Assembly: GCA_007130825.1 (NCBI GenBank)
Contig: SLRT01000018.1
Location: 1 to 63,608 of the forward strand
Length of the DNA: 63,608 nucleotides
Origin: Syntrophomonadaceae bacterium
GTDB taxonomy: Bacteria; Bacillota; Dethiobacteria; DTU022
Reading direction: 5' to 3'
In this document: piece by piece, positions 46,265 to 54,664 of the stretch
Numbering within the stretch: position 1 is the first letter of the stretch
Layout of the letters: every line of letters begins with the position of its first letter
Notes under the pieces: model-generated
What the model was told of the DNA's origin: nothing
What the model saw: the letters and a program-made list of their open reading frames with translations, nothing else
The model's database searches: none
Made by a program: the position numbers and the translations under genes

Positions 46265-46918
46265 TTGGTTTTAAAACAGAGCGGATGGGCAGGAAAAAAC
46301 AATAGAGCCATGGAAATAGTTATTATCACCGAAAGGAGTGTGAAGCCATTGCAGTGCGACCGGTGCGAAAAGATTGAGTGTTTCGAGGGTAAAGACTGTC
46401 TCAATATGCAGGAAGAGGTTATAGAATCCTACACTGGTCAGGACCGGCTGATCCACCACGCAGCTGCCTTGATCGAGGGCGAATACTATATGCAGAAAAC
46501 AAGGGTGGAGGAGTTGATACTTTTTTGCCGGGAAATGGGTTATGAACGCCTTGGTGTCGCTTTTTGTATCGGACTCCGGGAAGAAGCGAAAGTGCTTTGT
46601 TCCTATCTGCGCAAGCACTTCAGGATCTACAGTGTCTGCTGTAAAATATGCGGCACTTCAAAAGATTACCTTGCGCTGCCGAAGATTAAAGAAGACGAGC
46701 CGGAAGTGATGTGTAACCCGATTATCCAGGCCCGGACCCTGCGGGACAATAAAAGCGAGATCAATGTTACTGTCGGTCTGTGCATCGGCCATGACATCCT
46801 GTTCAACCAGCATTCAAACGTTCCGACTACGGCCTTAATTGTAAAAGATCGGGTGCTTTCCCATAATCCGGCCGGAGCCCTTTATACCGGGTATTATAAA
46901 AGGCTTATCGGTGGATAA
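46265..46918 (+). CDS. DUF1847-family Cys-rich metal-binding protein
   Basis: CDRCEKIECFEGKDC...VCCKICG...MCNPI...GLCIGHD pattern. The start is uncertain (ATG 46310, or TTG after AAAGGAG at about 46348). Confidence 0.7.
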   Translation: MVLKQSGWAGKNNRAMEIVIITERSVKPLQCDRCEKIECFEGKDCLNMQEEVIESYTGQDRLIHHAAALIEGEYYMQKTRVEELILFCREMGYERLGVAFCIGLREEAKVLCSYLRKHFRIYSVCCKICGTSKDYLALPKIKEDEPEVMCNPIIQARTLRDNKSEINVTVGLCIGHDILFNQHSNVPTTALIVKDRVLSHNPAGALYTGYYKRLIGG

Positions 46919-48748: not shown

Positions 48749-49690
48749 TCATCCGTGGTTTTTTTTGATCTTGAGAAAAGTTCCCCGCTCTTTTTGTTCC
48801 ATTTCAATTATATCCTTGGCCAATAGATGATTGATGTATTTTTGAATCTCTGAGGGTCGCAAGCTTAACATCTGCTGCAGATCTTTTACAGTGCAGGGCC
48901 GCCGGCGCAGGGTTTGCAAAATTTGTCTGCTGTGCGAATCGTTGAAGGTAAAGATTCTTTGGCCGGGTTTAAATGTATCAATTAATTCCGCTTTTTTTAG
49001 GTAAGAGGCGATCTCCTGCATTTTCCGGCTGTCTGCCGGTGTCACCCACTCTTCTGTTCCCGGCCTGTCGAGCGTTCCCAGCTGAATATGGTCCGGCCTG
49101 ATTTTGTCAAGGGCTTTTTTTAATGCGCTGATTTCTTCCGGATAGTCATTCAAACCGGGTGCTATAAAAACCTCCACTATTATTTTACCCATGTATTCAC
49201 TGCGCAGTTTAATCAATCCCTCAATTATATCTGCACATTTAAGATCTGGATGGGGGCGGTTTAACAGTTGGAAAGTTTTTTCAGTGGCTGTGTCCAGTGA
49301 AGGTATGATCAAATCCACGCCACCAGCCTGTTTGCGTACTGCCGCATCGGTAAATAAAGTACCGTTGGTTAGCAGACAAAGACTATAGCGGGGGTAGTTT
49401 TCCTTTAAAAAGTCTATTATTTCCCCCAAACCGGCATGGAGTGTTGGCTCACCGGAACCGGAAAAGGTGATGTAATCGAGATGTGGTTTATTTTCAAGAT
49501 AGTCACCCAGTTCTTCACGTACTTCAGCAGGCGGAACGTATTCCTTTCTTTCGACGGTACAATTAGTTGTTTTACCGCATTCACAATACACGCAGTCCAG
49601 GGTGCAGGTTTTAAGGCGGACCAAATCGACGCCGAGCGATACACCCAGCCGCCGTGAAGGCACAGGACCAAAAAGATGGCGGTATTTCAT
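48749..49690 (-). CDS. Radical-SAM protein (COG0731-like) with a C-terminal winged-helix-like tail
   Basis: MKYRHLFGPVPSRRLGVSLGVDL...CTLDCVYCECG (CxxxCxxC). The C-terminal tail of about 70 aa reads ILQTLRRRPCTVKDLQQMLSLRPSEIQKYINHLLAKDII. Confidence 0.85.
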   Translation of the reverse strand: MKYRHLFGPVPSRRLGVSLGVDLVRLKTCTLDCVYCECGKTTNCTVERKEYVPPAEVREELGDYLENKPHLDYITFSGSGEPTLHAGLGEIIDFLKENYPRYSLCLLTNGTLFTDAAVRKQAGGVDLIIPSLDTATEKTFQLLNRPHPDLKCADIIEGLIKLRSEYMGKIIVEVFIAPGLNDYPEEISALKKALDKIRPDHIQLGTLDRPGTEEWVTPADSRKMQEIASYLKKAELIDTFKPGQRIFTFNDSHSRQILQTLRRRPCTVKDLQQMLSLRPSEIQKYINHLLAKDIIEMEQKERGTFLKIKKNHG

Positions 49691-49824
49691 CGCTATCTAC
49701 CTCTTTTGTTATTTTTGATGATCCAGCTACCGGTAGTTGTTACCGATAAAAATAGCGGAATAGACCACCTGCTATATTCTGACTGGTAGCTGCAGATACG
49801 TTTTTAATATAACAAAAATTATTA

Positions 49825-49853
49825 TTGATGTATACCCATAAATCGGTTATAAT
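49825..49853 (+). promoter_or_regulatory. Sigma-A-type promoter of the NifX-like/ORP-like cluster
   Basis: TTGATG, a 17-nt spacer, then TATAAT. A TATACCCAT box lies in the spacer (49831-49839) and a second copy lies 34 nt downstream (49865-49873). Confidence 0.5.
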
Positions 49854-49897
49854 GATAATAGATATATACCCATTATTGGAGGAAGAAGGTGACCAGG

Positions 49898-50275
49898 ATG
49901 AAATTGGCAGTATGTGCTCAGGAGGAAAGTCTGGCAGCAGAAGTAGATCAACGCTTTGGCCGTTGTCCCTGCTTTGTGGTGGTAGACTCCGAAAGCGGTG
50001 AAATGATCAATTCAATCTGTAATGTTCATGCGGAAGCGGCGGGTGGAGCAGGACCGCAGTGCGCCCAGCTGCTAGCAGAAAGCGGTGTTGAGGCCGTAGC
50101 GCTGGGAAATGTAGGTCCGAAAGCGGCAACAGCTCTTGAAGCAGCAAAAATTATGATCTATACCGGTGTAGAAGGAACAGTAGAAAATACTGTGCAAAGA
50201 TTCAATGAAGGTAAGCTTTCGCCAGTTTCTCAGGCGACAGTTTCCGCCCATTCAGGGTTGAGAGGAAAACGGTAA
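49898..50275 (+). CDS. NifX/NifB-C-terminal-like (dinitrogenase FeMo-cofactor-binding fold; orange-protein family) protein 1
   Basis: MKLAVCAQEESLAAEVDQRFGRCPCFVVVD...GAGPQCAQLLAESGVEAVALGNVGPKA is the classic family pattern. The ORF track starts at GTG 49889. Confidence 0.8.
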   Translation: MKLAVCAQEESLAAEVDQRFGRCPCFVVVDSESGEMINSICNVHAEAAGGAGPQCAQLLAESGVEAVALGNVGPKAATALEAAKIMIYTGVEGTVENTVQRFNEGKLSPVSQATVSAHSGLRGKR

Positions 50276-50334
50276 AAAGGCTGGTGTTTTAGCCCAAAAA
50301 TGGTATATTTTGAAAAATATATGATTCAGGGGGT

Positions 50335-50697
50335 ATGATACCGATGATAGTTGCTGTTGCAACAGATGGAAACATGGTAGCGCAACATTTCGGGCGTTGT
50401 TCCGAATACACCCTATTTAAGATTGGTGACGGTGTAATCAACGAAGTAAATGTTATTGCCAATCCCGGCCATGAACCCGGCTTCCTGCCCGGTTACCTGG
50501 CCCAAATGGGGGTTAAATGTATCATTGCCGGAGGAATGGGACCCCGGGCCCAGTCTCTTTTTGCTGAAAAAAATATTGAAACCTGTGTGGGTGCCGCCGG
50601 TCCAACCAGGGATGTTGCAGAAGCTTACCTGTCCGGTAATCTTCAAACAGGAGTGAGCAGGTGTGATCATCAGTATGGCGGCCATAATTGTGACTGA
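50335..50697 (+). CDS. NifX/NifB-C-terminal-like (orange-protein family) protein 2
   Basis: IVAVATDGNMVAQHFGRCSEYTLFKI...GHEPGFLPGYLAQMGVKCIIAGGMGPRA. Confidence 0.8.
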   Translation: MIPMIVAVATDGNMVAQHFGRCSEYTLFKIGDGVINEVNVIANPGHEPGFLPGYLAQMGVKCIIAGGMGPRAQSLFAEKNIETCVGAAGPTRDVAEAYLSGNLQTGVSRCDHQYGGHNCD

Positions 50698-50735
50698 CTG
50701 TTTAAGGAAAATGAAAAGGAAAGGAGGTTGTGACT

Positions 50736-51068
50736 ATGCCTGGCTTTGATGGAACTGGTCCGATGGGTAGGGGGCCGGGTACAGGCGGAGGATTCGGTGT
50801 ATGCAGAGGTAGCCGGTTTTATCCGGGAGGCTCCAGAAGAGGCGGCTTCGGCTGCGGTCCTGGTTGGGGCCGCAGTTGGGGCCTCAGATGGGGGCCCTGC
50901 CACTGGTGGTCGTCTGCAACGGCTCCATATTACGGCCCTGCCTGGTCCGGACTGGAAGAAGAAAAAGCTTTCTTGAAAGAGCAGAAAGAACAGTTGAAAG
51001 CTGAAATGGCTGAAATGGAAAAACGGATGGCCGAGCTGGAAGAAGCAGCAGGTTCTGATCAGGATTAA
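50736..51068 (+). CDS. DUF5320-like protein (Gly/Arg/Trp-rich N-terminus, coiled-coil C-terminus)
   Basis: MPGFDGTGPMGRGPGTGGGFG... then EEEKAFLKEQKEQLKAEMAEMEKRMAELEE. The ATG at 50736 lies 8 nt after AGGAGG. Confidence 0.7.
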   Translation: MPGFDGTGPMGRGPGTGGGFGVCRGSRFYPGGSRRGGFGCGPGWGRSWGLRWGPCHWWSSATAPYYGPAWSGLEEEKAFLKEQKEQLKAEMAEMEKRMAELEEAAGSDQD

Positions 51069-51106
51069 GTAATTTTTCACCAGTTGCCTCTCCTCAGCTC
51101 CGGGCT

Positions 51107-51180
51107 GGAGGTGAGAAGTTAGAAAAAAGACAGCTTGCTTTTAGTTGTTCCGGTTAATAACCTTGACACTTCTCACCTCC
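51107..51180 (+). promoter_or_regulatory. 13-bp perfect inverted repeat pairing a Shine-Dalgarno-like GGAGGTGAGAAGT with ACTTCTCACCTCC
   Basis: Arms at 51107-51119 and 51168-51180, with a 48-nt loop. It lies in the 170-nt gap between the DUF5320 gene and the first ATPase gene. An upstream CCTCAGC/GCTGGAGG hairpin competes for the left arm. Confidence 0.4.
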
Positions 51181-51238
51181 AATTTCGTATTTTTATCTAG
51201 CTGTCAATGTGTACTACAGGAAGCGGAGAGATTAAATA

Positions 51239-52102
51239 ATGAATATAGTTGTTGCCAGCGGTAAGGGTGGGACCGGAAAGACGACCGTGGCTGTTAACCT
51301 GGCCCTGGCCCTCGATCAAGAAAAAACACAGCTGCTTGACTGCGACGTGGAAGAACCAAATGCCCACCTGTTTTTGAAGCCTGTTTTTGATAAATCCCGG
51401 GAAGTTGGCATTCCCGTGCCGGCAATAAATCTGGCACAGTGCAGCTTTTGCGGCCGTTGCTCCGAAGTATGTGCATTTAATGCCCTGGCGGTGTTAAAAA
51501 ATCAGGTAATGGTTTTCGAGGAGCTTTGCCACGGCTGCGGCGGTTGTGCCTACCTGTGCCCTGAAAGAGCAATTACCGAGCGCCATCGCCCGATCGGTAT
51601 CGTCGAGAGCGGCAAGGCAGGTAAACTTGATTATGGCCATGGCCGTTTGAACCCCGGTGAAGCAATGTCGCCTCCGCTGATTAATGCGGTAAAAAAAATG
51701 AGCAATCCTGAAAAGATAACTATTATTGATGCTCCGCCCGGGACATCGTGCCCTGTTGTCAGTGCTGTTAAAGGCTGCGATTATTGTGTGCTGGTGACAG
51801 AGCCCACTCCTTTTGGTTTAAATGACCTGGATCTTGCCTTTCAAATGGTAAATAAGCTCGATATTCCGGCCGGAGCTGTCATAAACCGCAGCGACCTCGG
51901 CGACGGTAAAGTAGAAGAATACTGTCAAATAAAAAACCTCCCTTTACTGCAAAAAATACCTTTTGACAGGGCACTGGCTGAATTGTATGCCTGCGGGGAA
52001 CCGGTGGTTTTACATCGATCTGCATGGCGCAACCGGTTCAGGGAGTTATTTACTAGTATTGCAGAGAGGCAGAAGGAGGTAGTCCGGTGGCGAAATATTT
52101 GA
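51239..52102 (+). CDS. MinD/ParA(CbiA)-type P-loop ATPase with an inserted 2x[4Fe-4S] ferredoxin domain, copy 1
   Basis: Deviant Walker A SGKGGTGKTT. The Fe-S motifs are CSFCGRCSEVC and CHGCGGCAYLCP. Confidence 0.85.
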   Translation: MNIVVASGKGGTGKTTVAVNLALALDQEKTQLLDCDVEEPNAHLFLKPVFDKSREVGIPVPAINLAQCSFCGRCSEVCAFNALAVLKNQVMVFEELCHGCGGCAYLCPERAITERHRPIGIVESGKAGKLDYGHGRLNPGEAMSPPLINAVKKMSNPEKITIIDAPPGTSCPVVSAVKGCDYCVLVTEPTPFGLNDLDLAFQMVNKLDIPAGAVINRSDLGDGKVEEYCQIKNLPLLQKIPFDRALAELYACGEPVVLHRSAWRNRFRELFTSIAERQKEVVRWRNI

Positions 52103-52962
52103 AGAAGCTGACCGTGATTAGCGGCAAAGGCGGAACGGGTAAAACTTCACTGGCAGGTTCTTTTGCCGCCTTGATCAGTCAGAAAGTGGTTATAGTAGAC
52201 GCTGATGTTGATGCAGCAAACTTAAGCCTGATAACCGGAACTGAGTTGCTTGAAAAGCACGAATTTCGAGCGTCAAAGGTTGCTGTTGTTGATCCTGAAA
52301 AATGCGCCGGCTGTGGACTTTGCCGGGACCTATGCCGTTTTGAGGCTGTTTCTGAGAATTTCTTTGTCAACCCGGTAGATTGTGAAGGCTGTGCTTTATG
52401 TGCTTATGCCTGCCCGCAGGAAGCGATCAGTATGGAAGAAAAAGTATCAGGGCAATGGTTTGTTTCACAAACCCCTTATGGAAATCTTGTCCATGCCCGC
52501 CTGGGGATAGCCGAAGAAAACTCCGGGAAGCTGGTTACGACTGTTCGTAATCGGGGTCAGGAGCTGGCGGAAACCGGTGGTAAAGAATATCTGCTCATTG
52601 ACGGTCCTCCCGGTATTGGCTGCCCGGTAATTGCTTCGCTGGCCGGAGTTGATGCTGCCCTGATCGTTATTGAACCCACCTTGTCAGGTATTCATGATCT
52701 AGAAAGGGTATTGTCTGTGTGCAGTTATTTTGGAATTACGGCAGCTGTCTGTATCAATCGTTATGATATGGGAATGACCCAGTCGGCATTGATCGAAGAT
52801 TACTGCCGGCAGGAAGACATCGTTATGGCCGGTAAAATTCCTTTCGATCGCGCTTTTGTCGAGGCTATGGTCCAGGGTTTGCCTGTAATAGAATATACAA
52901 ACGGGCTGCTTTGCAGGAAAATAAGCAGTTTATGGGATAAATTTACAGCCATCCTCAAATAG
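52087..52962 (+). CDS. MinD/ParA(CbiA)-type P-loop ATPase with an inserted 2x[4Fe-4S] ferredoxin domain, copy 2
   Basis: SGKGGTGKTS, CAGCGLCRDLC and CEGCALCAYACP. The GTG start overlaps the upstream gene by 16 nt. Confidence 0.85.
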   Translation: MAKYLKKLTVISGKGGTGKTSLAGSFAALISQKVVIVDADVDAANLSLITGTELLEKHEFRASKVAVVDPEKCAGCGLCRDLCRFEAVSENFFVNPVDCEGCALCAYACPQEAISMEEKVSGQWFVSQTPYGNLVHARLGIAEENSGKLVTTVRNRGQELAETGGKEYLLIDGPPGIGCPVIASLAGVDAALIVIEPTLSGIHDLERVLSVCSYFGITAAVCINRYDMGMTQSALIEDYCRQEDIVMAGKIPFDRAFVEAMVQGLPVIEYTNGLLCRKISSLWDKFTAILK

Positions 52963-53031
52963 TTGTGTTGTCACATATTTTTTGCTAAAATAAAATGCAA
53001 TCAATTAAATAAGTTTAGAGGGGTTTTAAGT

Positions 53032-53442
53032 ATGCCGCGTCCATTTAAACCACGTCGGGTGAGCACGATGCCCCGTTACACTTATTTCAAGCCGACAGGA
53101 ATTCCGATGCCTTTGCTGGACGAAGTTGTACTTACTGTTGATGAGATAGAGGCTATTCGGTTAAAAGATCTGGAAAAATTAGAGCAGCAGGAATGTGCAG
53201 TTCGCATGAATGTAGCCCAAAGCACATTACAGCGTATTCTTGCTTCGGCCCGTGAAAAAATAGCCCTGTCGATTATCGAGGGGAAAGCCATGCGTATCCA
53301 CGGTGGTCCTTTTGCCATCGAAGGTGAGCCCACCTGCCCGCGCTGTCGTCGTCGCAGATTCGGCCAGAAACCTCCACCTAAAGCTGATACTCCCGGTATT
53401 GGCGAAGAATATTGCCCGGAATGCGGCAGTGAAGAAGAATAG
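53032..53442 (+). CDS. DUF134/UPF0251-family putative DNA-binding protein with a C-terminal CxxC...CxxC tail
   Basis: MPRPFKPRRV...YFKPTGIP...LTVDEIEAIRLKDLEKLEQQECAVRMNVAQSTLQRIL (HTH-like), then CPRCRRRR...CPECG. The ORF track starts at 52963. Confidence 0.8.
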   Translation: MPRPFKPRRVSTMPRYTYFKPTGIPMPLLDEVVLTVDEIEAIRLKDLEKLEQQECAVRMNVAQSTLQRILASAREKIALSIIEGKAMRIHGGPFAIEGEPTCPRCRRRRFGQKPPPKADTPGIGEEYCPECGSEEE

Positions 53443-53585: not shown

Positions 53586-54488
53586 CTATAAGGCGCCCGG
53601 GGTTTTAATCAGGTGGGGCAGGATATGTTTACGCAGTTCTTTAACGGCCATAGTTCCGGTAATATGACCTTTGTCGATTACCGCGACGGGATAGTTCTTA
53701 TATGTTTCCATTTGTCTTTCAAAACGAATAACCTGGTCATAGCGGGCCAGCAGGGGAAAAAGGTTTTGATCTTTAACCTTGAAAAATAGATTATCAAAGT
53801 TTAGCGCTTTTGTAACCGCAGCCGGATTATCATGGACCGGGTTACCGGTAAGTTTTCTGTATACGGAATTGATGAAAACGTCATCCGGTGCTGTGCCGGC
53901 CAGCATCGGGAGATAAGTGCCTGCGGTGTTGCAATAAATTCGATGCAAATTGGTTACCCAACCTCCGAGGCTGATTCCCGAAACCACCACCCGGCTTCCC
54001 TTGCGCGCAGCGTAATTTGTCAGCGCTTCTACCAAATGCACCGATACAGCTAACAGGGCTTTGAAATTTGCCAGGTTGGCAATTTTTTTGATGTAGAGTT
54101 TATAAGAGCAGTGATAGGGGGCCCGAACAGCAATCAGGTTGGCCGGAATATCATTTTTTATTGCCAGGAAGATATCCCGGAAAGAACTTTTTCCAAGCGG
54201 CCTTCTACTGAAAGGCCTTTCATTGTTGCCGTGGTGGTAAATAAGGGTCGGGTACTGGTTGCCCCGCCACTCGGCGATATGAAATGCAGGGTCAAGTTCA
54301 CCGACCGCTGTCTGAGCGGGCGTTTCGTAATAACCTTCGCCCTCAATATCGGGCCATTTGAAGGTAACTGAATTTAAAAGTTCCTCATATGTGGGGCTTT
54401 CGATACTATTTCGAAATAGCTTGCTTTTACTAAATAACACAGATCCAAAATTAACAGAAAAACTGTCGATTAAAGCATGCTTGTTCAT
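53586..54488 (-). CDS. Alpha/beta-hydrolase-fold protein (function unknown)
   Basis: The nucleophile elbow is GISLGGW and the size fits the fold. The ATG at 54488 follows GAGGAG; the ORF track extends to 54542. Confidence 0.6.
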   Translation of the reverse strand: MNKHALIDSFSVNFGSVLFSKSKLFRNSIESPTYEELLNSVTFKWPDIEGEGYYETPAQTAVGELDPAFHIAEWRGNQYPTLIYHHGNNERPFSRRPLGKSSFRDIFLAIKNDIPANLIAVRAPYHCSYKLYIKKIANLANFKALLAVSVHLVEALTNYAARKGSRVVVSGISLGGWVTNLHRIYCNTAGTYLPMLAGTAPDDVFINSVYRKLTGNPVHDNPAAVTKALNFDNLFFKVKDQNLFPLLARYDQVIRFERQMETYKNYPVAVIDKGHITGTMAVKELRKHILPHLIKTPGAL

Positions 54489-54664
54489 TGTGCCGATTCT
54501 CCTCAGTAATTTAATTAAACAGCCGCAGTTATTTTCCTGCATTTTTATCGGACGCTTTTTTTAATATGTTTAAGGTTTGACCGATTTTGCTCTTGCCAGT
54601 TGGGCTGCAAAGTAATAAGCTCTAGATGTCATTTGTATATTTTGATCATCAATGAGGCGTTCAG

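Follow-up and report, generated by a model that had tools for sequence, protein, structure and literature searches.

The window analysed here is a 63,608-nucleotide stretch of contig SLRT01000018.1 from a Syntrophomonadaceae bacterium (assembly GCA_007130825.1), and at 48749-53442 it carries seven intact open reading frames (ORFs). A radical S-adenosylmethionine (SAM) gene faces away from six co-directional genes that encode, in order, two small NifX-fold proteins (NifX1 and NifX2), a DUF5320 protein, two MinD-type ATPases with ferredoxin inserts (MinD1 and MinD2) and a DUF134 helix-turn-helix protein (Table 1). This gene order, with its strands, had been given in a preliminary description made from the DNA letters, which also likened the set to the orange-protein (ORP) clusters of anaerobes. 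The gene set proved correct, and Pfam profile searches supported every family that had been named, including Nitro_FeMo-Co, CbiA, Fer4, DUF5320 and DUF134. Judged by its gene content and sequence relationships, the locus belongs to the family of ORP-complex gene clusters originally reported from Desulfovibrio, and this copy is an ordinary member of that published family with a few local twists.

The assignment is carried by the NifX-fold proteins together with the ATPase pair. Among PDB sequences, NifX1 matched MTH1175 (1.1e-16), the Desulfovibrio gigas orange protein 2wfb (1.4e-14, over residues 2-107) and TM1290 (1.7e-14). NifX2 instead scored 97 bits against positions 265-365 of the NCBIfam MrpORP model NF041136, which has a whole-protein cut-off of 450, and its PDB sequence matches were TM1816 and PH0822. 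It carries HFGRC near the N-terminus and CDH...HNC at the C-terminus; HFGxC and CDH motifs have been described for the [3Fe-4S]-binding Di-Nase domain of MrpORP (PMC6345978). The ORP complex of Desulfovibrio vulgaris Hildenborough contains the paralogous Orp3 and Orp4, with two [4Fe-4S] motifs each, the small Fe-S protein Orp5, the orange protein Orp8 and MrpORP (Orp9); Orp3, Orp4 and Orp8 co-purify, and MrpORP passes Fe-S clusters to them in vitro (PMC6345978). Since the ATPase pair, NifX1 and NifX2 fit these published descriptions, the window holds equivalents of Orp3/4, Orp8 and the C-terminal part of Orp9, bearing out the proposed ORP identity. The two systems thus have in common tandem MinD-type ATPases with two [4Fe-4S] motifs each, an orange-protein-type NifX fold, an MrpORP-type Di-Nase domain and an anaerobe context. 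They differ in layout: in D. vulgaris the orp genes are split between two divergent sigma-54 operons controlled by OrpR (PMC8359166), whereas the ORP genes of the window form one co-directional set with a sigma-70 promoter and DUF134. In addition, the MrpORP fusion is not present, the Di-Nase half standing alone as NifX2, and the position of Orp5 is taken by the DUF5320 coiled-coil protein.

To place the locus among its relatives, we scanned with the ATPase alignment, taking one genome per species, and obtained 548 confirmed relatives; all locus counts given below refer to the best 80, at 47-69% identity to MinD1. ORFs were called in all loci and labelled by profiles iterated from the window proteins, and the labels were spot-checked with Pfam and with precomputed Pfam-annotated neighbourhoods, which agreed. 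The 80 loci span more than 15 bacterial and archaeal phyla. Bacterial sources are Bacillota, Chloroflexota, Desulfobacterota, Omnitrophota, Ignavibacteria, Planctomycetota, Acidobacteriota, Zixibacteria and a spirochaete lineage (Leptospirales); archaeal sources are Methanocellaceae, Methanohalophilus, Bathyarchaeia, Altiarchaeota, Thermoplasmatota and Methanophagales. The closest loci come from Bacillota, Dethiobacter alkaliphilus and Syntrophomonadaceae metagenome-assembled genomes. The ATPase pair was in tandem in 80/80 loci. Within 5 kb of the pair, and with counts for the 42 loci that have full flanks in brackets, we found a NifX-fold gene in 75/80 (40/42), a DUF5320-like gene in 48/80 (27/42), an Mrp/NBP35-like gene in 40/80 (23/42), DUF134 in 20/80 (13/42) and a radical-SAM label of any kind in 18/80 (11/42), about 16 of the 18 being of the window subfamily. 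The NifX1 subtype occurred in 70 of the 80 loci and the NifX2 subtype in 58, with both together in 53. In an even sample of the window's phylum, a MinD1 orthologue (E <= 1e-40) was present in 103 of 201 genomes and 88 of 164 genera, and two matches, where reported, were adjacent; an exhaustive search of 1.84 billion representative proteins returned 931 ATPase clusters at E <= 1e-30. Recurrence of this gene set in 80 independent loci of many phyla puts the arrangement far outside what chance would produce, and we rejected chance juxtaposition. The preliminary description was right that this version lacks a sigma-54 activator and has DUF134 and DUF5320; it is no odd variant, since the recurrence counts across loci and within the phylum make the DUF134/DUF5320 form the common, widespread one in Bacteria and Archaea.

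MinD1 and MinD2 are ~31% identical and, in alignment with their orthologues, each shows an SGKGGTGKT deviant Walker A motif and two CX2CX2CX3C motifs, the latter in an inserted 2x[4Fe-4S] ferredoxin domain of ~80 residues. Across 80 homologues covering both paralogues, Walker A, D34/D36, the eight ferredoxin cysteines, Walker B D164 and Cys171, a switch-II residue seven positions after D164, were invariant, and Cys35 was ~90% conserved. In NifH, CooC and Mrp, a metal or cluster at the dimer interface is often held by cysteines in this region. The AlphaFold2 model of MinD1 (predicted local distance difference test score, pLDDT, 97.2) was closest to the PDB folds of archaeal MinD, ApbC, ATPase-type HypB and Cfd1, followed by FleN, FlhG and ParA, and no PDB sequence or fold match spanned both the ATPase and the ferredoxin insert. 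The pair falls in the same P-loop fold class as its top structural matches, Mrp/NBP35/ApbC, Cfd1, ATPase-type HypB and CooC, and is predicted to share with these metallochaperone ATPases a nucleotide-dependent dimerisation logic and a Cys near the dimer interface. Unlike Mrp/NBP35, the two ATPases have the ferredoxin insert and no CXXC outside it, which places them outside that family; their PF10609 matches are partial, at 70 and 42 bits over the N-terminal P-loop stretch, compared with 309-332 for true Mrp neighbours. Fused MinD1-MinD2 proteins of ~600 amino acids that match the query twice were found among many top representative matches (P0138-P0159 and similar).

A feature overlooked in the preliminary description is the loss of the Mrp/NBP35 partner. 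Three relatives (L003, L004 and L008) share the flanking genes of the window, with a CPBP protease, PfpI and the divergent radical SAM gene on one side and EamA downstream, and their operon is headed by a genuine separate Mrp/NBP35 gene (309 bits on PF10609). In the window, the promoter abuts NifX1 directly, with no Mrp between. Another relative has a 39-codon ORF between the conserved promoter and NifX1 (L009:1431-1550), PLDPELSSLGDKGRIEEY, which matches the C-terminus of the relatives' Mrp. Since this locus keeps a deletion remnant and other relatives keep the full gene, the Mrp gene was lost within this clade. A tblastn search of the genome with a relative's Mrp found only a 25%-identical P-loop protein, and genome-wide absence of Mrp is likely rather than certain, given the incompleteness of the assembly (2.33 Mb in 177 contigs, ~96% complete). 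The whole genome was likewise found to hold no NifD/K/E/N-type (PF00148) protein and no NifX-fold gene beyond NifX1 and NifX2. A role in making the iron-molybdenum (FeMo) cofactor is therefore unlikely, as had been argued from the lack of nitrogenase in the window, and the argument now holds genome-wide, a nitrogenase role being excluded for the genome as well.

The DUF5320 protein, a single copy in the genome, matches PF17253 over its full length (profile positions 1-99, cut-off 27). It begins with an MPGFDGTGPMGRGPGTGGGFGxC motif, continues as a cationic low-complexity stretch of Gly, Arg and aromatic residues and ends in an acidic coiled coil. Residues 1-72 contain 23 Gly, 7 Arg/Lys, 13 aromatic residues and 8 Pro, with an isoelectric point (pI) of 10.3. 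This is nearly the composition of the 70-residue tail of IssA, the thioferrate storage protein of Pyrococcus furiosus, which has 15 Gly, 7 cationic and 14 aromatic residues, 11 Pro and a pI of 10.7, and which has been proposed to wrap anionic thioferrate (PMC5524996). NifX1 ends 15 residues past its Nitro_FeMo-Co domain and has no IssA-type tail in cis; its best structural relative, MTH1175, has been placed in the IssA clade, which along with the uncharacterised 'IssX' clade is among the nearest known counterparts (PMC5524996). Given the IssA-like composition and the clade of MTH1175, a trans-acting, tail-like role for DUF5320 is plausible by analogy. Unlike IssA, the window has the tail-like segment of ~70 disordered residues in a separate protein, with an added N-terminal motif and coiled coil.

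NifX domains joined to the DUF5320 coiled-coil module by a Gly/Arg/Met-rich linker occur in 19 of the 80 loci and are mostly of the orange-protein type. At one further locus (L023), the module fused to the NifX domain is a Cys ribbon, not a coiled coil. The NifX-DUF5320 and MinD1-MinD2 gene fusions provide indirect support for a physical complex of the locus proteins. We rejected a complementary distribution of free and NifX-fused DUF5320 coiled coils, as 14 loci carry both. Many other loci have, directly upstream of the first ATPase, a protein of ~75 amino acids with the DUF5320 N-terminal motif and a CxCPxCG...PC...CPxCG (Cys6) ribbon, which reaches Pfam DUF5320 at threshold over profile positions 1-43 alone. 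By position and Cys content, this protein is probably of the Orp5/Dde_3197 type. No small Cys-rich gene of that type lies beside the ATPases in the window, where a 170-nucleotide non-coding spacer stands in its place. DUF5320 was also observed elsewhere: at two loci (L006:6464-11300 and L007) a lone DUF5320 gene lies directly upstream of carbon monoxide dehydrogenase/acetyl-CoA synthase genes (Prismane, CdhC), ferredoxin, NifU and DUF364, and at a third (L001) it follows a lone Mrp-like gene. From these contexts, DUF5320 is not confined to ORP-type clusters.

The divergent intergenic region of 198 nucleotides (49691-49888) contains a sigma-70-type promoter, found by promoter scan, with a -35 element TTGATG at 49825-49830, a 17-nucleotide spacer and a -10 element TATAAT at 49848-49853. 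No TGGCAC-N5-TTGC-like sigma-54 site was found in this region, and no activator gene lies between the divergent genes. A 23-nucleotide direct repeat, spaced by 34 bp, places one operator-like box over the -35 element (box 1, TTATTGATGTATACCCATAA, 49822-49841) and a second between the -10 element and the ribosome-binding site (box 2, TAATAGATATATACCCATTA, 49856-49875). The exact palindrome TTATG-N10-CATAA occurs nine times in 895 kb, compared with 1.0 in shuffles, and all nine sites are intergenic and upstream of ORP-type cluster genes, most within ~50 nucleotides of the first gene. With an operator matrix built from these nine palindromes, box 1 scored 14.1 bits, the top match in the entire 63.6-kb window, and box 2 scored 6.1 bits. 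Both boxes are kept in five related loci, the boxes and the -10 element forming the conserved columns of a six-promoter alignment, and those of Dethiobacter alkaliphilus are nearer to the consensus. Of the 20 loci with DUF134, 14 have a site of at least 12 bits in their cluster span, compared with 14 of the 60 without it, and in at least nine of those 14 DUF134 loci a site lies 27-47 nucleotides upstream of the DUF134 start. Site density was 4.5-fold higher inside than outside cluster spans.

DUF134 (PF02001, cut-off 27) is also a single copy in the genome and is encoded last in the operon; its CPRC...CPEC tail is present in some form in most relatives. The natural reading of the site distribution is that DUF134 is the predicted repressor of the operon, acting at the two boxes. 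Many DUF134 proteins of other loci (L017, L027-L033, L052, L069 and L074) have a terminal Cys ribbon to which a Gly/Arg-rich tail is appended, and this tail is similar to the low-complexity part of DUF5320; the DUF134 of the window ends in an acidic tail instead.

Table 1. Positions and strands of the genes and regulatory features of the ORP-type locus.
Feature	Position	Strand	Basis or remark
DUF1847 Cys-rich protein, possible loose accessory	46265..46918	+	Pfam 171.8 bits
Radical SAM enzyme with C-terminal winged-helix domain	48749..49690	-	divergent from operon
Sigma-70-type promoter with two operator-like boxes	49822..49875	+	promoter scan, direct repeat
NifX1, single-domain Nitro_FeMo-Co (IPR003731), orange-protein/MTH1175/IssA-like type (Orp8-like)	49898..50275	+	Pfam 75.6 bits
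NifX2, single-domain Nitro_FeMo-Co, MrpORP C-terminal (Di-Nase) type	50335..50697	+	Pfam 62.6 bits
DUF5320 protein	50736..51068	+	Pfam 79.1 bits
Perfect 14-bp inverted repeat and U-rich run	51106..51181	+	in DUF5320-MinD1 spacer
MinD1, deviant-Walker-A MinD/Mrp-class ATPase with inserted 2x[4Fe-4S] ferredoxin domain (Orp3/Orp4 type)	51239..52102	+	Pfam CbiA, ParA, Fer4
MinD2, paralogous ATPase with the same ferredoxin insert	52087..52962	+	Pfam CbiA/ParA, Fer4
DUF134 helix-turn-helix protein with CPRC...CPEC (Cys4 ribbon-like) tail	53032..53442	+	Pfam 78.5 bits

Gene starts were refined by alignment to relatives and by ribosome-binding sites. The refined starts are ATG 49898 for NifX1, ATG 50335 or 50344 for NifX2, ATG 50736 for DUF5320, GTG 52087 for MinD2, which overlaps the end of MinD1 by 16 nucleotides, and ATG 53032 for DUF134, giving a protein of 136 rather than 159 amino acids. 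It is plausible that one promoter serves all six co-directional genes, which would then be co-transcribed. Two features could modulate transcription within the set. The non-coding DUF5320-MinD1 spacer (51069-51238) contains a hairpin with perfect 14-bp arms, TGGAGGTGAGAAGT and ACTTCTCACCTCCA, followed by the U-rich run, and it folds only modestly better than shuffled sequences (z-score -2.2). The hairpin is not kept in related loci, the spacers of which differ in length and sequence, and we therefore rejected a conserved RNA element and take the hairpin as lineage-specific. It may act as an attenuator or RNA-stability element, and read-through attenuation here could yield the small carrier proteins in excess over the ATPases. 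The second feature is a promoter-like TTGTCA-17-TAAAAT at 52968-52996, in the 69-nucleotide gap before the refined DUF134 start, and DUF134 may also have a promoter of its own. Downstream of the set, we observed a convergent ORF of 318 amino acids (53586-54542, minus strand) that has no Pfam or NCBIfam match and no homologue in the other 87 loci; it carries a GISLGG (GxSxG-like) motif that suggests an alpha/beta hydrolase.

The divergent radical SAM protein scored 61 bits on Radical_SAM, with its CX3CX2C motif at C29/C33/C36, and residues 250-300 gave weak ArsR/MarR/PF0610-like winged helix-turn-helix (wHTH) matches. Its AlphaFold2 model (pLDDT 89) matched PFL-AE, NifB, viperin and TYW1 about equally, so that the fold match is generic. 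Only C29, C33, C36 and the wHTH residue C266 are conserved cysteines in 37 homologues, which means that the protein lacks the auxiliary-cluster ligands of NifB; it also lacks a fused NifX domain by Pfam, and we rejected it as a NifB analogue. The same subfamily lies within 5 kb of ~16 of the 80 ORP-type loci, archaeal loci included, with scores of 220-440 bits. This linkage of ~20% is far higher than the ~0.4% that a single-copy gene in a 2.5-Mb genome would be expected to show. Homologues of 57-60% identity are also encoded outside any ORP cluster, and an obligatory partnership was rejected, as three of three more distant homologues examined lie in unrelated contexts. On this distribution, the link is real but facultative, and the gene is an accessory of ORP-type clusters.

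The DUF1847 gene lies 1.8 kb from the end of the radical SAM gene. Three other loci (L036/L094, L058 and L060), two of them archaeal, have a homologue of it within or adjoining the ORP-type cluster, and in the Methanocellaceae locus L036/L094 DUF1847 adjoins the radical SAM gene. DUF1847 is thus possibly a recurrent but facultative accessory, like radical SAM. The Methanocellaceae locus is itself an expanded archaeal cluster (L094, 35-10956) in which the core genes are interleaved with a DtxR-type Fe repressor, DUF169, ARMT1-like/DUF89, DUF364, ArsP_2, a metallo-beta-lactamase, radical SAM, DUF1847 and DUF123.

Gene families, synteny, domain fusions, box conservation and the lack of Mrp and nitrogenase genes in this genome were all observed directly here, and the biochemical steps, DNA binding by DUF134 and co-transcription are all inferred. 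We consider it reasonably probable that the system works in the cytoplasm, repressed by DUF134, and uses ATP and electrons to store iron-sulfide (or other metal-sulfide) material or to pass it on. MinD1 and MinD2 would form an ATP-dependent heterodimer, as for deviant-Walker-A ATPases, with the two [4Fe-4S] clusters of each subunit serving electron transfer, and at the dimer interface a metal or cluster could be bound by the invariant switch-II Cys of each subunit. NifX1, of the orange-protein/IssA-like type, would bind anionic metal-sulfide species without covalent ligands, and NifX2 would hold a Cys/His-ligated Fe-S cluster. DUF5320 would supply in trans the cationic Gly/Arg/aromatic tail and coiled coil that are fused to NifX in other lineages, and may help to bind or oligomerise the cargo. 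DUF134 would repress the promoter via the two boxes that overlap the -35 element and the transcript start, its Cys4 tail probably sensing metal or cluster status.

Several points weigh against this proposal. The cellular role of the ORP complex is unresolved even in Desulfovibrio, where cell division was the original proposal, and the orange protein of D. gigas was isolated with a Mo-Cu cluster, not iron sulfide (as cited in PMC6345978). The published loader of the complex is missing, because the ~96% complete genome has no recognisable Mrp/NBP35, its best PF10609 score being 43 bits against more than 300 for true members. The likeness between DUF5320 and the IssA tail is compositional only and reflects no homology. 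Both boxes are degenerate, at 14.1 and 6.1 bits compared with 20-34 for canonical palindromes, and the matrix was trained on nine of the 28 loci later scored, which makes the test partly circular for those nine. The operon may be split transcriptionally at the spacer hairpin. Finally, the mechanism for this organism has been read from sequence and models.

A more specific version of storage, which we put forward tentatively and regard as improbable as a whole, is that DUF5320 and the orange-protein-type NifX correspond, as a mesophilic version split over two proteins, to IssA, the iron-sulfur store of Archaea, and work without Mrp/NBP35 in this lineage. An anionic iron-sulfide polymer would be enclosed by the cationic Gly/Arg/aromatic segment and assembled into particles by the coiled coil, with the ferredoxin-bearing MinD heterodimer spending ATP and electrons to build or mobilise the store and DUF134 reading cluster status by its Cys4 tail at the two-box operator. 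IssA itself forms thioferrate nanoparticles.

The metal might instead be Mo or W, with or without Cu. NifX1 would then carry a thiometallate such as S2MoS2CuS2MoS2, which the ATPases would load or unload for Mo/W homeostasis or detoxification, and its similarity to the D. gigas orange protein, isolated with a Mo-Cu cluster (as cited in PMC6345978), speaks for this idea. We nevertheless think it unlikely: neither a molybdate/tungstate transporter nor molybdopterin biosynthesis genes turned up in the sampled Pfam-annotated neighbourhoods, the partners that recur are Fe-S proteins, and a cluster found in half of the phylum's genomes is broader than a niche Mo-Cu function would predict.

The original proposal for D. 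vulgaris was a role in cell division or positioning. The MinD-like ATPases would attach to the membrane or poles by C-terminal amphipathic helices to position the septum or some other structure, and the Fe-S clusters would sense redox state. Consistent with this, Orp3 and Orp4 are reported to have C-terminal amphipathic helices, MrpORP to form polar foci and the complex to have a putative role in cell division (PMC6345978); in addition, the best folds for MinD1 include MinD, FlhG, FleN and ParA, and the C-terminal helix of MinD2 has a high hydrophobic moment (0.74). The neighbourhoods argue otherwise, and we hold this explanation to be quite unlikely. The 80 neighbourhoods contain no MinC, MinE, FtsZ or other division genes; the partners that recur throughout are NifX-fold metallocluster carriers, Mrp/NBP35 scaffolds and ferredoxins, and accessories seen at single loci include DtxR (L094) and NifU (L006, beside DUF5320), with DUF1847 at three loci. 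Moreover, it was the Mrp domain, absent from this genome, that was linked to polar localisation in D. vulgaris.

A metallocofactor pathway like that of NifB, NifX/NafY and NifH, in which the radical SAM enzyme would modify a precursor, the NifX-fold proteins carry it and the ATPase pair act in a NifH-like manner, has in its favour the NifX-fold carriers, a predicted dimeric deviant-Walker-A Fe-S ATPase, a switch-II Cys position that recalls the NifH cluster ligand, NifB among the best radical SAM folds and radical SAM linkage at ~20% of ORP-type loci in both domains of life, but is highly improbable in view of the missing NifD/K/E/N genes, the ferredoxin insert that replaces the NifH cluster arrangement, the radical SAM protein's conserved CX3CX2C and single wHTH Cys in place of NifB auxiliary ligands, its equally good non-NifB fold matches, the unlinked distant homologues and the ~80% of loci with no radical SAM gene nearby.

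Taken together, our results place this locus in a family that is among the most widespread gene sets of strict anaerobes without a known cellular function. This copy alone does not open the question of ORP function, and it adds several handles on it: a natural variant that is missing the Mrp/NBP35 loader, a remnant of which survives deletion in a sister lineage; fusion evidence that ties DUF5320 to a NifX-fold carrier; and the radical-SAM/wHTH and DUF1847 proteins as recurrent facultative accessories. In addition, the two-box sigma-70 promoter is a candidate DNA target for the uncharacterised DUF134 family. If DUF5320 and the orange-protein-type NifX do form a split counterpart of IssA, a common iron-sulfide storage system of anaerobic Bacteria and Archaea, organelle-like in character, would have gone unrecognised.

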